A DNA stretch of 62,812 nt, counting the filler, from Rhabdomonas costata (Eukaryota), in assembly GCA_019059605.1 (NCBI GenBank). It is 41 parts of 41 records of this genome, joined end to end, with 100 filler letters (N's around TTAATTAATTAA, not from the genome) between each part and the next. Parts side by side here need not be neighbours in the genome. Positions count along the whole stretch, not along the records: positions 35,305 to 36,738 come from JAHMHO010016054.1; positions 36,839 to 38,272 come from JAHMHO010016055.1; positions 38,373 to 39,806 come from JAHMHO010016056.1; 38 more parts are not named here. One strand, written 5' to 3'. The translations under genes and the position numbers were made by a program. This document shows positions 36,458 to 44,409 of the stretch, one piece after another; position 1 is the stretch's first letter; each line of letters opens with the position of its first letter. The notes under the pieces are model-generated. The model did no database searches. It was given only the letters and a program-made list of their open reading frames with translations, and was not told the origin of the DNA.

Positions 36458-36883
36458 CTGGGGCCAGTCAGTCACCAAAAATGGAAAAAAACCCAAGCCC
36501 TCTATTTCACACTCTCTGACGGTGCACAGAATACCTGCAATCACACGCTGCAGCGCTTCCTATTTTCCTTCCTCTGCAAGTGGACCAATGTCCAAGAAGA
36601 GATAGCCATTTCGCACCAAATTCTCATTTGCTAAAAGAGGCCGAATCCGGTCCAGGTTACTGGGCTTCCTTTCGCGATGGTGGACATTTTCCCCTGAACG
36701 GCGCGTGTTCGTGGCCATTACCATCAATCCCAAACAAANNNNNNNNNNNNNNNNNNNNNNNNNNNNNNNNNNNNNNNNNNNNTTAATTAATTAANNNNNN
36801 NNNNNNNNNNNNNNNNNNNNNNNNNNNNNNNNNNNNNNTGTTGTTGGTGAAAATTATTCAGGGAAAACATCATTATTTGATAT

Positions 36884-38142
36884 AATATTATATCAAATAA
36901 TGATGTTTTCCCTGAATAATTTTCACCTACTATACCTATCACTGACCCTATTTCAATATCATCACAATACATATTTACATATTTATTTAAATCAAATATA
37001 TATTCTTTGTTTTGTCCATATGATAACATATTCACGAATTTGACTTTCTTTATTGTCCATTTACTTATTGATGTATTTGTATGTCTCTTTTTCTTTTTAT
37101 ATTCTACATCATTATTGAGTTCTTCCATTATTTCATTTGTTATTTTTTTAAATTTATCTATCATATGTGTGATATTTGTTTTCTCACAATACATTTCAAT
37201 TGTTTTCTCTATGTTGTCATATTTGTTTTCTTTTTTTTCAATTATTTTATTTATTATTCCTTTCCCTTTAATATATGATGTTATTTGTATATTATCTTTA
37301 TTATTCTCTTCATATTTCTTTATTTGTTCTTCTTGTTTTTTTTCCGTTATTAACCATCTAATTCTTGGATATTTTATGTCATATTTGGGATATATTTCCC
37401 CGTCTTTTATTGATAACGTTACATATCCATAATCATTTTTTATCTCAATAAATTTACTCTTTTTTGTTTTTATATTCCATTTTACAAATCCATGTTCTGT
37501 TATACTTTCACCGTGATTTTGTTGTATTAAACTGCCACTGTAACATATCGTTTTCTCTTCATTTAAATATTGATGTTTATGAACATCTCCTAGTAATACT
37601 AAATCATAATCTTTAAAATCTCCCACCGTTTTCGTCCCTGTTAATCTATTATTTGATTCTGTTTTTGATCCATCTACTATTCCATGATATAAACCTACAT
37701 TATATTTGTCTTGTATCGGTTTTGTTATCTTATCTGATGTCATTTTTGTTAAACAAAAATTTATATTCTTATATTCATAATATTCTTCGTTTATCAACAC
37801 CACATTATATGATTTATCTGTTAATATTGCTGTAATTGAATCTTCCTGATTATTCATGTTCATATCATGATTTCCTAATATCACAAATACTTTCATTATT
37901 TCTGATATTTGTTTTAAAAAATTACTTGTCATTTTTATTATTTGTGGATTTAATCTATTTTTATTATTTAATAAATCACCACATATTACCATTATATGTT
38001 CTTTCTTCTTATATTTTTGTATTTCCTCTTTTAAACTTGTATATAATCTTTCAAATACTGTTAAGTACTCTGTTTTTCGTTCATTATGTTCATCCAATCG
38101 GATATGTATATCCGCTATTTGATATATGAATCCAACTTCCAT
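36884..38142 (-). CDS. Mre11/SbcD nuclease-Rad50/SbcC ATPase fusion protein (giant-virus type), 3'-truncated
   Basis: Intronless ORF, about 20% GC by hand count of sample lines. Phosphoesterase motifs ADIHI, CGDLL, LGNHD, YHG, LGDVHK and YSGSLIQQNHGE, then the SMC/Rad50 head start WTIKKVKFVNMLSYG and Walker A GENYSGKTS. Confidence 0.95.
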
Positions 38143-38198
38143 TTGTAAATAATTTAGTGTTTTCTGTATTTATTTTTATTATATATATCTTTACAATT

Positions 38199-38206
38199 TC
38201 AATTTT
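38199..38206 (-). promoter_or_regulatory. AAAATTGA Mimiviridae-type early promoter motif
   Basis: Plus-strand tcaatttt is AAAATTGA on the coding strand, ~57 nt upstream of the ATG at 38142, followed by a TATATA-rich stretch. Confidence 0.75.
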
Positions 38207-39906
38207 TTTTATATCCTAATTTCATTAAGATCAAATATTTTATCTTAATGAAATTAGGATATAAAAAAAACANNNNNNNNNNNNNNNNNNNNNNNNNNNN
38301 NNNNNNNNNNNNNNNNTTAATTAATTAANNNNNNNNNNNNNNNNNNNNNNNNNNNNNNNNNNNNNNNNNNNNTGTGGTGGGTGGCTGGCACACCCCTACA
38401 CCCAGTCCGAGGCTTTCCACTGGCTCGCTGCCTTTGGCACCGCCACGGTTTTTGACTGCGTGGTGCTGCAAACTCTGAAGGTGTGCTTGTGTGGGGTTGT
38501 CCTTACCTACCTCTTGAACAGGAAGGATGCCAGATCTTTCTTTAGATGGGGTCCCGCGTGATTTTATGCAAGTAGGGTCAAGCCCGGACGTGCACCGTAG
38601 AACTCTTGATTTGAGCTCCTGCTGGGAGTAATTACCTTCAACAGAGGTCATTGCATGGCAACAAAGGTCATTGCATGGAACATACGCGGTCATGGTATTT
38701 GGTTGTGCAGCAGTGATGCTCGGCTAGCAGTGTTGTGTGCTGTACATGCGCTCTTCAGGTCCTGCTTCTGTTTGCCACCACCAGTGGCGTATAGATTTCG
38801 CTGGGTAGTCGCTAAATATGGATGTAGCACCTTTTTTCGCTCGCATATTGTACAGCCGTTCTCTTTCCCCAGTTTTGTTGTCTTTCGTGTTCTGTTTTGT
38901 GCGGCCCAGAAAAGGGGAAAGAGTTCGGATCAGGCCCGCTGAGAATCGGCCAACTTCTGCTTTCATGTCCGCTTGTGCTCTTGTTGTGTCCTTCATGTGT
39001 AATCATTAATGTGACGAAGTTTCACTCCTTTGGATTATCGTTCTTCCCTCTGTGTGCATCCATGCATGTCTCAGCTGTTTGTTTGTTTTGGCTGTTAGAA
39101 ATGGTTGCTACTCGGTGTGCCGGGGGCTTGGGTTCCCCACCCCCTGCCGTTTCCGAAGATTGATTTTTAGCCTTGGTTTGGGTTGGTGGATATCCGTGAA
39201 ATGGCTTCGGTACATTGGTCAGGACGGGGCGTTCTCTGTTTGGGACTCATTCGGCATTCAACTCTAGCTGGTGCAAAGAGAGTGCTTTTTATGTGGAAGC
39301 AGCAGGAGCGGGTATCAGGATATGAACGTGCGGTTTGAAAAAGTTTTCTGTGTTAACGGGTGCTTGGGCCTCTCGCTTCGGGGCCTTGGGCCTTCCCTTT
39401 AGGGACCGATCACGATCAATCTATGGTGGAGTGTGCCGCGGCCACGGGCTGGTGGAATCCCTCCGGAAAGCCAGTGTTTTTTGGGGTGCGCGGTTTTGCT
39501 TGGGTCAGGTGAATGGGCAGTTACATCCGCAGCGATGGAGGGATTGGAGGGACCTAGGCGCCCAAGAGCGCGGGGGCAAGAGCTTCACGCGGCGGGGCCC
39601 CGCCCGTAGGACCCGACTTCCCACTTCATCCCCTCTTTCTTTGTTCCCCTCACTCTCGTTTGGTTTCTGTTTGGCCAGAGGTATTTTTGGACTACTGGAA
39701 CATTGTTTTTTCCCTAAGCACCGTTTTTCCTCTCTCTCTCTCTCTCTCGCATTTTCTTCCCTGAACCATCTTGTGGGCCAAACCATGGCTGGACAACCCA
39801 CAAACCNNNNNNNNNNNNNNNNNNNNNNNNNNNNNNNNNNNNNNNNNNNNTTAATTAATTAANNNNNNNNNNNNNNNNNNNNNNNNNNNNNNNNNNNNNN
39901 NNNNNN

Positions 39907-42975: not shown

Positions 42976-44409
42976 GTGTTGGGTGTGTGTGGTTGTTGTG
43001 TTCGCAGCTCCGACAGTATGTGCTGCGCTGCTATTGATAAGCTCCATTTGAGAAACGGGGAGGGAGACCTCTGACCGAGTTGAAGCCCTCTGCTGGCTCG
43101 CTTGCTGGACATTTAGGAATGCATCACTGGCGTCAGCGGTCGATAAGGCTGAGGTTTGAGATGGAAAATAATCTTCGAGTGTAGAGGTGCCCAGCATATC
43201 CGATGCAGCGGAGATTGCAGAAAGGTGAGAAACCCTGGAAGGCTCAGCGGTTGCTTGAGTGGTGTCGAAGTTCAGGGACGATGGAACACCCCTCGATTCA
43301 GGCATCTCTTCTCCTGAGTCGTGTCCGCCCGATGAGCTGAAGCAGAAACGAACAGGTCCACGCTCACCAACAGGATGATCCCCGGAACTCCGCGACGAAG
43401 AGTGAGTGTGCGCTTGCGTTTGCACGACCAAGGAGGGAAGGTCGGGACGGAAGGCAGTGATGGGCTGCGCCGAAGAAGATTTCAGCGGGCGCTCCTCATC
43501 ATCAACCATAGCCAAGCTGGGATCCTGGGCATAGCCTTCAGTGGTGGAAAGCAGCTGAGTTCGAGAAGAAGCACCGTCTGATGGCCTGAACCCTTGCGCG
43601 GCGATGGCGTCGGCTATGCTGGAAGCAGTAAATACTGTTCCGGTAGAAGAAACGGGTGCCTCCACTTGAGGGGGAGAGCATGCGGCAGATTTAACTGGAG
43701 CACCACTTCTCAAGCTAAAGTCTGGCGCAGCTCTGCGACCATTAGGGCTGGAACTTTCCGCTGGTCCCATCGATACGGCCATCGCCAGCTGACGATTTTC
43801 ACGTTCCAGAACTTCAATGTAAGCCTGGAGCTTCACATTCTCACATCTTAGTACAGCCGAGGACTCCGTTGCCTTACCTTTGGAATCCTCCAGAGCAGCA
43901 ATCTGACTCTTCAGGCTCTGGGTCACGGTTTGCAGGGCGATGCGTGCCTTTTCAGACTCCTCCGTGCGGAGGCGACGCTCCTCTTTCAACTTCTGGTGCG
44001 CGTACTGGTACTCACGGGAAAACTTTTGCGCCCGCTTCCGCTCCGCCTCAAGTTCAATCTCCAGCTCTCGGTTCGCTGCCCGTGCTGCGTTAAGTTTCTG
44101 CAGCTCTTCAGCAAGCACTCGACGAGCTTCCCCAAGATCACTCTCAGCCTTTTTCTTTCCCTTCTGCAGGGCATGGGTGAGCTTGTACTCCTCTTCGAGA
44201 AGGCGCCGCAGCTCAGTACACTCCAGCTCGAGCTTTTTCTTCGATTCCGGCAGCTCTGTTTTTCGAGCCAACGCACGACGCTTCGCAGCATCCGTCGAAA
44301 GCCCCTCACCTGCAGTGGTGGTGTTGACAGACATATTGAGGGGAGCCGTTTCAACCACAGAGTCGCGAGAAGGGCGCACAACACCGTCAGGTCGACGTCC
44401 CCCAAAACC
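42976..44409 (-). CDS. Long exon encoding a coiled-coil plus Ser-rich disordered protein, partial
   Basis: ORF of more than 460 codons spanning essentially the whole contig, with a heptad E/K/R/L-rich N-terminal half. Confidence 0.85.

Follow-up and report, generated by a model that had tools for sequence, protein, structure and literature searches.

Few environmental giant viruses have so far been assigned to a host. Does one short AT-rich contig in the genome assembly of the protist Rhabdomonas costata (GCA_019059605.1) come from such a virus? The window, that is, the whole stretch of DNA analyzed here (62,812 nucleotides), consists of 41 unrelated contigs of 1432 to 1436 bp each, separated by N runs and the spacer TTAATTAATTAA. 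A preliminary description had singled out the contig at positions 36839 to 38272 as the only AT-rich one and had assigned it to a mimivirus-like giant virus, on the basis of an intact open reading frame (ORF) fusing Mre11 to Rad50 and of an upstream promoter element.

An AT-rich contig with artifactual ends

The composition of the contig was confirmed to be singular in the window, with a GC content of 0.229 (22.9%) compared to 0.392 to 0.569 for the other 40 contigs. The contigs next lowest in GC (0.392 and 0.435) were considered as additional viral pieces and rejected, their longest stop-to-stop frames being 85 and 111 aa, respectively. A mitochondrial or other organellar origin was considered on composition alone and, with no evidence in its favor, was tentatively set aside. 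The product of one ORF on a neighboring contig shared 99% identity with a EukProt entry, and given this sequence match it is plausible that the assembly includes a eukaryotic host. No Rfam family or tRNA was found across the window, and 13 long ORFs on the other contigs gave no Pfam family.

Both ends of the AT-rich contig are fold-backs. At the left end (36839 to 36886), 4 to 7 unmatched nt are followed by an inverted copy of 36887 to 36930, such that the two arms (36843 to 36886 and 36887 to 36930; 44 nt, 98% match) abut with 0 nt between them; at the right end, 38237 to 38272 is an inverted copy of 38203 to 38236 plus 2 nt, with arms at 38203 to 38236 and 38237 to 38270 (34 nt, 97% match) and again 0 nt between them. 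The same mirror test gave 43 matching nt at the left end of this contig and at most 8 in each of the other 40. The mirrored left part reads ILYQIMMFSLNNFHQQ, and the relatives of the encoded protein differ there, past the Walker A motif. Since the ends are inverted duplications, the ORF's final 16 codons and the leader's outermost 36 nt are artifactual, and the genuine sequence is the 1350 nt from 36887 to 38236, comprising 418 codons and a 94-nt leader, with 48 nt outside it at one end and 36 nt at the other. Most simply, the fold-backs arose as an amplification or assembly artifact on a short or rare template. The mirror at 38203 to 38270 was also considered as a genuine mimivirus-type terminator hairpin; this reading was rejected because both mirrors stop 2 to 7 nt from the contig ends, and the like mirror at the other end cuts Walker A codons. 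Because both ends fold back, the contig contains no junction with host DNA.

The fused Mre11-Rad50 gene

The genuine part of the contig begins an Mre11/Rad50 (SbcD/SbcC) fusion gene, of which it carries the initial 418 codons (36889 to 38142, minus strand, open at its 3' side). Starting at the ATG at 38142, a single minus-strand frame stays free of stops as far as the contig end; by hand arithmetic, a stop would be expected by chance at about 1 codon in 11 for such a composition. The ORF had been called intact, and indeed all 418 codons are open, but the contig end truncates the gene and leaves only its 5' third, as the relatives are approximately 1000 to 1450 aa long. The joining of an Mre11/SbcD phosphoesterase to a Rad50 Walker A motif in one frame was confirmed. 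Residues 1 to 235 (37438 to 38142, minus strand) form the calcineurin-like phosphoesterase core with its DxH, GD, GNHD, H, GDxH, and H motifs, all of which are present (D11/H13, G55-D56, G90-N91-H92-D93, H153, G185-D186-V-H188, and H217). They are followed by a beta-rich capping domain (residues 236 to 295; 37258 to 37437, minus strand; model strands between 238 and 292), a helix-loop-helix (residues 305 to 352; 37087 to 37230, minus strand; model helices 308 to 321, 325 to 343, and 346 to 351), and, as judged from alignment columns, the start of the Rad50/SbcC ATPase N-lobe (residues 360 to 418; 36889 to 37065, minus strand). The Walker A motif, G406-ENYS-G411-K412-T413 (36904 to 36927, minus strand), lies at residues 406 to 413 in the same frame as the Mre11 part.

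The query was colinear in alignment with 21 full-length fusions, and it keeps the metal-binding motif columns, which were invariant in all 21 and conserved in 327 to 335 of 336 relatives. The Mre11 part matched Pfam Metallophos (2.3e-08; 35.2 bits, cutoff 21.5) and the SbcD-like PHROG 100 (1.4e-24). Matches to Pfam ABC_tran, AAA_23, and SMC_N were weak and below the cutoffs; the Rad50 part shares W362, F369, N371, N408, G411, and K412 with the relatives, including the Walker A glycine and lysine that were kept in 322/336. Two near-invariant histidines are changed in the query, H8 to Q (also in 6/336 relatives) and H59 to N (also in 2/336). The second of these is the third residue of motif II, which is H in 319 of the 336 relatives, D in 12, and N in 2; the motif reads GDxxD in SbcD/Mre11 and GDxxH in the group of Mimivirus R555, and N59 is a variant, not necessarily an inactivating one. 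An AlphaFold2 model of the query had a mean pLDDT of 76.7, with mostly 85 to 97 in the phosphoesterase core and low values in the Rad50 part. When this model was searched with Foldseek, the top PDB matches were all Mre11/SbcD (E of 3e-12 and weaker, 320 to 409 columns aligned), led by the full-length Mre11 chains of the Mre11:Rad50 complexes 3qg5, 3av0, and 6s6v.

The upstream leader

The 94-nt leader (38143 to 38236, minus strand) is 13.8% GC and contains stops in all three sense frames; any codirectional upstream gene must therefore be separated from the ATG by at least 56 nt. The exact AAAATTGA described earlier was found at 38199 to 38206 (minus strand), at -64 to -57 relative to the ATG, which its final base precedes by 57 nt, and is a candidate early promoter element of the mimivirus type. 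According to the literature, 45% of mimivirus genes and 35% of CroV genes have this motif in the 150 nt upstream. Here it is a single match, with 0.04 to 0.07 expected by chance in a leader of this length (it was seen in 3,946 of 100,000 shuffles), and across the whole window there were 5 matches versus 4.17 expected. Moreover, a conserved promoter of the fusion gene was rejected, as AAAATTGA occurred within 150 nt upstream in only 4 of 92 homologous loci, was not enriched across them (176 seen versus 238 expected), and was absent upstream of the five long-form IMG/VR loci. The element may serve as a promoter here; a lone copy in so AT-rich a leader (14% GC) is weak evidence.

Relatives of the fusion gene and their neighborhoods

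Searches returned 1638 long relatives, with 903 representatives at E ≤ 1e-30. Among the best 120 of the 1638, the named ones were giant viruses or carried generic labels only (Cotonvirus japonicus, two APMV entries, Edafosvirus, a "viral metagenome" entry with a longest contig of 577 kb, and generic JGI SbcCD). The highest identity in the searched collections was 43% for full-length matches and 47% for partial ones. Of the matches listed, which comprised the best 120 long proteins and the 95 near-length proteins, none was a EukProt-sourced relative, none of 90 phage records covered at least 80% of the query by tblastn, and the plasmid collection gave no match. A survey of 185,579 prokaryote species genomes yielded no more than 11 loci, each on a draft or MAG contig 1.8 to 49.6 kb long. 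A single-sequence scan of IMG/VR gave no match, and the IMG/VR loci considered here came from an alignment-based scan. The family has two branches, one of approximately 1050-aa proteins in tailed phages and a longer form that includes APMV, Cotonvirus, Edafosvirus, and giant-virus contigs. The sequence matches support placing the query in the R555-type Mre11/Rad50 fusion family. That family is already known (Yoshida 2011, PMC3175470), and the contig adds one more member. The fusions listed in Yoshida 2011 (PMC3175470) come from bacteria, plasmids, one Bacillus phage, and several eukaryotes. The fusion had been taken as characteristic of mimiviruses; the query does belong to the R555-type family, but tailed phages, including Microcystis phage Mel-JY01, also encode such fusions. 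Thus, the Mre11-Rad50 fusion alone is no giant-virus marker, and the phage branch is instead recognizable by an abutting primase gene.

Three trees placed the query among the long-form sequences beside Edafosvirus. In a careful IQ-TREE analysis of 52 sequences, it fell inside a clade of 37 (UFBoot 100, SH-aLRT 100) that holds APMV, Cotonvirus, Edafosvirus, the GVMAG contigs L001 and L049, and the contig L065, and within it inside a clade of 6 (99/92) in which Edafosvirus is the sole named member. A quick maximum-likelihood tree of 55 sequences agreed on this placement (SH-aLRT 99). In a FastTree analysis of 331 sequences, the query was nested in a clade of 181 (97) containing every sequence labeled as giant virus, and there within a subclade of 82 that includes Edafosvirus (95). 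The giant-virus placement thus stood in all three trees, but an approximately unbiased (AU) test retained a position just outside: a tree that moves the query across the main split to the phage-type side was not rejected (lnL difference, 12.87; P = 0.189), the group for this test having been named after the tree was seen. The branch leading to the query was also long (1.14 versus a median of 0.49 in the 52-sequence tree), and the long-form clade includes sequences from prokaryote draft genomes. Pairwise identity barely separates the two sides, at 36 to 42% to giant-virus-type sequences versus 31 to 36% to phage-type ones.

The gene neighborhoods of the relatives were in keeping with the two branches. 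On L065 (23.5% GC), an NCLDV major capsid gene lies 3 kb from the fusion gene (Capsid_N, 9.6e-39; Capsid_NCLDV, 1.6e-33), and the 374-kb contig L002 carries a P9 minor capsid gene. The phage-type branch has tail fiber, endolysin, PhoH, and primase genes as neighbors: a tail fiber gene at L044, endolysin and PhoH genes at L081, and a primase gene upstream of the fusion gene at L044, L058, and L081. Two of the prokaryote-draft sequences in the long-form clade have neighbors of their own, a phage-type primase upstream at L086 and genes for Dam methylase and dNMP kinase at L091. An NCLDV capsid gene was found in one of five whole prokaryote assemblies carrying long-form-clade or unplaced genes. 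In the short-form, phage-type loci, the upstream ORF is codirectional in 60 of 62 and ends no more than 30 nt before the gene in 55 of 62 (median, -4 nt). The upstream gaps at the six long-form loci were 66 to 338 nt, and the query has a spacer of at least 56 nt of 14% GC.

Likely origin of the contig

Together, the low GC content, family, trees, context of the relatives, gene spacing, AAAATTGA, and predicted fold make it likely that the contig is of giant-virus origin. We propose that this short fragment derives from a giant virus of the order to which mimiviruses belong (Imitervirales), nearest the Edafosvirus or klosneuvirus-like part of the gene tree, and that it was sequenced along with a eukaryotic (protist) genome. 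This assignment is weakened by the AU result, the long branch, the poorly separating identities, the phage-type primase at L086, the prokaryote-draft sequences in the clade, the solitary AAAATTGA, and the changes at H8 and H59. The main competitor is a large tailed phage or other mobile element of an AT-rich bacterium present as prey, symbiont, or contaminant. A phage-borne branch exists, as in the Mel-JY01 fusion (1066 aa, 31% identity to query residues 2 to 417) and in the relatives with tail fiber, endolysin, PhoH, and upstream primase genes; moreover, the AU test tolerates the query outside the giant-virus-type clade, and four of the five prokaryote assemblies noted above lack an NCLDV capsid gene. 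Nevertheless, all three trees place the query beside Edafosvirus, its AT-rich leader leaves no room for the abutting upstream gene of most phage-type loci, its identity to the phage-type sequences is the lower of the two ranges, and no plasmid matched, and we regard a phage or mobile-element source as improbable.

The gene might instead be the protist's own, as either a host-encoded fusion or a recently integrated giant-virus element. Eukaryotic fusions have been reported in Micromonas, Phaeodactylum, Dictyostelium, and Physcomitrella, and Yoshida 2011 (PMC3175470) gives fused genes in six eukaryotes; the contig was assembled beside eukaryotic contigs, including the one with the EukProt match, and replacement of the two near-invariant histidines could reflect relaxed constraint. 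Set against this, the GC content is far below that of every other contig, fold-backs rather than host-like flanks bound the contig at both ends, all 418 codons are open with every metal-ligand motif kept, and no EukProt-sourced protein appeared among the matches listed. Moreover, according to Yoshida 2011 (PMC3175470), the fusions of eukaryotes form a group separate from that of R555. A gene of the protist itself is therefore quite unlikely. That the contig is an assembly or amplification chimera and no biological sequence would fit the zero-loop inverted duplications at both ends, seen in 1 of the 41 contigs. However, the 418 residues encoded by the inner 1350 nt can be aligned over their whole length with hundreds of natural proteins, the catalytic columns are conserved, the predicted fold is Mre11-like, and the artifact is limited to the outer 48 and 36 nt; such a chimera is hardly credible.

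With a giant virus as the favored source, the virus may have been infecting, ingested, integrated, or a contaminant, as the contig is compatible with each alike; the live or recent virus favored in the preliminary description, and the virus-host pair suggested there, go beyond this. A narrower proposal, that the source is a deep-branching, unsampled klosneuvirus-like mimivirid physically associated with the protist (infecting or recently integrated), is offered tentatively and is on balance doubtful; if true, it would represent a new giant-virus/host pair. By itself, a 1.35-kb piece with artifactual ends is a flag only, but if the assembly holds more contigs of like composition, these could connect a named protist with a mimivirus-like lineage that has so far gone unsampled.

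Proposed function and comparison with known systems

On this proposal, the AT-rich leader precedes the 5'-terminal third of a viral gene for a single-chain Mre11-Rad50 enzyme, in which a predicted Mn-dependent Mre11/SbcD phosphodiesterase core is followed by the capping domain, the helix-loop-helix, and the first Rad50 ATPase lobe. In two-subunit enzymes, the helix-loop-helix holds the coiled coil of Rad50 at its base; here, the ATPase lobe is fused directly on, and in the fusion the element is described as serving as the linker (Yoshida 2011, PMC3175470). Past the point where the contig ends, the full-length relatives continue through a coiled coil bearing the CxxC zinc hook into a second ATPase lobe (signature, Walker B, and H-loop), and their consensus includes CxxC, SGFE, IDEG, and ISH; in the query, these features, the Q-loop, and the D-loop would lie outside the contig. 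By analogy with Mre11-Rad50/SbcCD, ATP binding would cause the enzyme to close on DNA ends or hairpins like a clamp and cut them, and this may serve replication, recombination, and repair of a large linear viral genome.

Among known systems, the closest counterparts are Mimivirus R555, a "putative DNA repair protein," and its Cotonvirus and Edafosvirus orthologues (PMC3175470), which have the same domain order in one frame, cover the whole query (100%) in alignment at 35 to 39% identity with the same motif columns, and share its clade in the three trees. The query differs from them in comprising 418 residues only (relatives, approximately 1230 to 1360), in lacking the variable N-terminal extension of 10 to 80 residues, in having Q for H at 8, N for H at 59, and a Walker A ending in GKT rather than GKS, and by a 10- to 12-residue insert before the Walker A motif. 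Its distance to each named virus is as great as that between named viruses of different subfamilies (38% identity for APMV and Edafosvirus). The SbcDC-type fusions of tailed phages (the Mel-JY01 "AAA domain containing protein" and the approximately 1050-aa proteins of marine IMG/VR contigs) have the same architecture and are alignable over query residues 2 to 417 at 31 to 36% identity; unlike the query, they occupy a separate tree branch, have a primase gene abutting or overlapping the start, and are shorter proteins. The two-subunit Mre11-Rad50/SbcCD enzymes of T. maritima (3qg5), M. jannaschii (3av0), and E. coli (6s6v) share the phosphoesterase, capping, and helix-loop-helix fold (Foldseek E of 3e-12 to 1e-8 at 11 to 19% identity; PDB sequence matches to Mre11/SbcD at 2e-05), but in these enzymes, as in T4 gp47/gp46, the nuclease and the ATPase reside on separate polypeptides, unlike in the query.

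A compositionally distinct contig with mirror-image ends

The window of 62,812 bases consisted of 41 contigs of 1,432 to 1,436 bp each, joined by N runs around a TTAATTAATTAA spacer, and was thus not a single locus. Positions 36839 to 38272 corresponded to exactly one contig, and since its GC fraction was 0.229, compared to 0.392 to 0.569 for the remaining 40, the low-GC outlier noted in the preliminary description is real. The contigs next lowest in GC (0.392 and 0.435) had no stop-to-stop frame exceeding 85 and 111 amino acids, respectively, and 13 long frames of the other contigs matched no Pfam family. On the minus strand of the contig at 42976 to 44409, a frame was open over all 478 codons (1,434 bp) and was 99% identical to part of P0245, a 909-amino-acid EukProt protein with leucine-rich-repeat domains; apart from P0245, no relative was found at an E value of ≤1e-5. 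This frame looks like a lineage-specific host gene, intronless along that stretch, and the match fits a mainly eukaryotic assembly, as the preliminary description supposed. The proposed identification of the host from RNA genes found no material in the window, where neither an Rfam family nor a tRNA was detected.

Both ends of the AT-rich contig are artefacts. Positions 36843 to 36886 are the reverse complement of 36887 to 36930 (44 nt, 98%, no loop), and positions 38237 to 38270 are the reverse complement of 38203 to 38236 (34 nt, 97%, no loop). A fold-back scan of all 82 contig ends gave 43 and 33 matching nucleotides at this contig and at most 8 elsewhere; it was the only one of the 41 with zero-loop fold-back ends. 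About 7 unrelated nucleotides precede the left-hand mirror, and the right-hand mirror carries a single C/T mismatch, 5 nt from its center. The left mirror interrupts the Walker A codons of the gene described below, after which the frame reads the reverse complement (…ILYQIMMFSLNNFHQQ); relatives continue for 600 to 1,000 residues beyond the point where this mirror begins. Because both ends are mirror-image artefacts, the real sequence is 36887 to 38236 (1,350 nt), and neither the last 16 codons of the ORF as listed nor the outer 36 nt of its "upstream region" should be kept. Inverted junctions with no loop would be expected from snap-back priming in multiple-displacement amplification or from a de Bruijn assembler reversing on a rare template, and the fold-back at both ends hints at a short or rare template.

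A partial Mre11/Rad50 fusion gene

The real sequence contains the 5' part of a Mre11/Rad50 fusion gene (the query), with its ATG at 38142 on the minus strand and 418 codons open to the end of the real sequence. By hand arithmetic, approximately 1 in 11 random codons would be a stop in 23%-GC DNA, so this open frame is not due to chance. In Pfam, Metallophos scored above the cut-off (2.3e-08) and P-loop families were sub-threshold only; among PHROGs, family 100, "SbcD-like subunit of palindrome specific endonuclease," was matched at 1.4e-24. Comparison with 21 full-length relatives showed that all metal-ligand columns were kept (D11, H13, D56, N91, H92, D93, H153, D186, H188, and H217, counted from the ATG), as were the Rad50 columns past a colinear linker (W362, F369, N371, N408, G411, and K412); these columns are conserved in 317 to 335 of 336 relatives. 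At two near-invariant histidines the query has Q (position 8, common to 6 of the 336) and N (position 59, where the relatives have H in 319, D in 12, and N in 2). Its Walker A reads GKT rather than the GKS of relatives, an insert of 10 to 12 residues lies ahead of the P-loop, and there is no N-terminal extension. The AlphaFold2 model, built from a 22-row alignment, had a mean pLDDT of 76.7, with high values at residues 1 to 290 and 310 to 340 and low values from residue 349 onward. The best Foldseek matches of this model in the PDB were all Mre11/SbcD (E values from 3e-12) and included the Mre11 chains of Mre11:Rad50 complexes 3qg5, 3av0, and 6s6v; a PDB sequence search gave Mre11/SbcD at 2e-05. 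The description of a full Mre11/SbcD joined to a Rad50 Walker-A head is correct. The ORF was wrongly called intact, since the query is the first third of a gene.

Relatives of the query

A search of proteins of 733 to 2,090 amino acids, in which 7,122 candidates were scored, yielded 1,638 relatives at an E value of ≤0.001. The best 120 of these covered 59 to 100% of the query at 32 to 43% identity; named among them were Cotonvirus japonicus, two entries of Acanthamoeba polyphaga mimivirus (APMV), Edafosvirus, and generic JGI SbcCD labels, along with one "viral metagenome" entry whose longest contig was 577 kb. HMMER, run exhaustively against 1.84 billion cluster representatives, gave 903 matches at an E value of ≤1e-30, the best full-length matches being 40 to 43% identical and 47% being reached over a partial match only. 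Among proteins of 229 to 732 amino acids, the best identity was 43% and none of the matches came from EukProt. No close relative was present in the collections searched. In an alignment of 337 N-terminal regions, the row closest to the query shared 41.7% identity with it, and just 8 of the other 336 rows were equally isolated. The family was known already, and the query adds a new and divergent member to it. Three proteins of 274 to 487 amino acids (P0309, P0329, and P0265) have the Mre11-like part alone or up to the P-loop and are encoded on very long contigs (375 to 900 kb); split or truncated fusion forms may exist in large viral or cellular genomes.

Relatives were encoded in at least 564 of 596 IMG/VR pattern matches, and among the 80 listed matches are two GVMAG contigs as well as contigs 374 and 417 kb long. 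Plasmids gave no match. Ninety tailed-phage records matched the query, none of them covering 80% or more of it in tblastn. The best was Microcystis phage Mel-JY01. Its annotated 1,066-amino-acid "AAA domain containing protein" is also a fusion, encoded after a primase-like gene, and aligns to query residues 2 to 417 at 31% identity with the low-complexity filter off. Prokaryotes (one genome per species, 185,579 species) gave 11 loci; every one was on a short, low-GC contig (1.8 to 49.6 kb, 24 to 46% GC) of a draft genome or MAG. These GTDB genome contigs (L081 to L091), of which one, at 27% GC, is in a Nisaea MAG, look like virus sequences that were mis-binned. In one MAG, G005, a second small contig (L094) encodes an NCLDV major capsid protein.

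Gene neighborhoods and upstream region

The flanks of fetched loci were scanned with Pfam and PHROG. In the long-form, giant-virus-type clade, L065 (23.5% GC) carried, besides a DEAD helicase and zinc-finger genes, a major capsid gene of the NCLDV type (Capsid_N, 9.6e-39; Capsid_NCLDV, 1.6e-33); L002, a 374-kb contig adjoining APMV in the tree, had a P9 minor capsid gene; and L049 (GVMAG-S) had glycosyltransferases and a 2OG oxygenase. In the short-form branch of approximately 1,050 amino acids, L044 encoded a tail fibre (matching 16 PHROG tail families, best 4.4e-33) and L081 an endolysin and PhoH. Immediately before the fusion gene, L044, L058, L081, and L086 had a PHROG-47 primase, an arrangement like that of Mel-JY01. 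Because of these tail-fibre, endolysin, PhoH, and primase genes, the short-form branch belongs to tailed phages. Within this branch (L044, L058, L081, L086, L092, and approximately 60 further IMG/VR loci), the order primase then fusion, abutting or overlapping, was conserved.

Upstream spacing likewise separated the two branches. At 62 short-form loci, the nearest upstream ORF of at least 100 amino acids was co-directional in 60 and ended at a median of -4 nt from the gene (within 30 nt in 55). Upstream gaps at six long-form loci, three of them from the same virus, were 66 to 338 nt. The query leader comprises 94 real nucleotides (13.8% GC) in which each of the three sense frames is closed by a stop, so that an upstream gene could come no nearer than 56 nt; this spacing is the giant-virus pattern.

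The octamer AAAATTGA does occur upstream, at 38199 to 38206 on the minus strand (-64 to -57 from the ATG), within the real sequence, and is a candidate promoter element. It is reported to precede 45% of mimivirus genes and 35% of CroV genes at a distance of up to 150 nt and to open a promoter of iridovirus IIV-6 (PMC5294985); in tupanvirus it is reported as approximately 600% commoner in intergenic than in coding regions (PMC5829246). As a promoter sign it is less telling than had been claimed: the leader holds a single match against 0.04 to 0.07 expected, 3,946 of 100,000 leader shuffles contained it, and it lay within 150 nt of the inferred start in only 4 of 92 homologous loci, none of the four long-form. 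Across all fetched loci, 176 copies were observed versus 238 expected. The octamer thus adds a little weight to a giant-virus origin and is not diagnostic.

Tree position and origin of the contig

Trees were built on the query-homologous region. In a quick tree of 55 hand-chosen rows (the query, 4 named proteins, 27 unnamed top hits, 22 of 91 fetched loci, and a cyanophage outgroup), the query and all named giant viruses shared a clade of 39 rows (SH-aLRT 99). After L083 (a fragment) and L085 and L086 (branches of >1.8) were dropped, a careful tree of 52 rows placed it inside a 37-row clade (100/100) and, within that, in a 6-row clade (99/92) with Edafosvirus, P0006, P0130, P0132, and P0133; its branch was long (1.14 versus a median of 0.49). 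In a FastTree of 331 rows, from which 6 rows of <330 amino acids were left out, it was nested in a 181-row clade (97) containing every giant-virus-labelled row and, within it, in a subclade of 82 rows (95) that also held Edafosvirus and GVMAG-S, adjoining P0187.

Tree position, leader structure, and composition together make a giant-virus origin, as claimed in the preliminary description, the best explanation of the contig and a probable one. The main rival, a tailed-phage or bacterial source, is unlikely. It draws on an AU test in which forcing the query across the main split, a group named after the tree was seen, gave p = 0.189 with a log-likelihood 12.87 lower, so that a position just outside the giant-virus-type crown is not rejected. 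The long-form clade is also not clean: some of its rows come from draft assemblies of prokaryotes, just one of the five assemblies searched had an NCLDV capsid gene, L086 has a phage-type primase upstream, and at L091 a Dam methylase and a dNMP kinase adjoin the fusion gene. Against this source, all three trees group the query with giant-virus-labelled rows, Edafosvirus being in its subclade, and its start codon is not abutted by an upstream gene. Under a giant-virus origin, the 1,350 nt with artefactual ends may derive from an infecting, eaten, integrated, or contaminant virus.

Comparison with known Mre11/Rad50 systems

Mimivirus R555 is a Mre11/Rad50 fusion (Yoshida, Claverie and Ogata 2011, PMC3175470). 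The same paper reports twelve further fusions, including those of Firmicutes, Deferribacter, plasmids, and Bacillus phage 0305phi8-36 and, among eukaryotes, Physcomitrella, Dictyostelium, Polysphondylium, Phaeodactylum, and two Micromonas, so the fusion can be called characteristic of mimiviruses only with qualification. R555 homologues are described there as abundant in aquatic metagenomes; since the marine branch of approximately 1,050 amino acids is a tailed-phage branch, these may be largely phage rather than giant-virus genes. By analogy with Mre11-Rad50/SbcCD, the query product would use ATP to clamp DNA ends and hairpins and would cut in a Mn-dependent manner.
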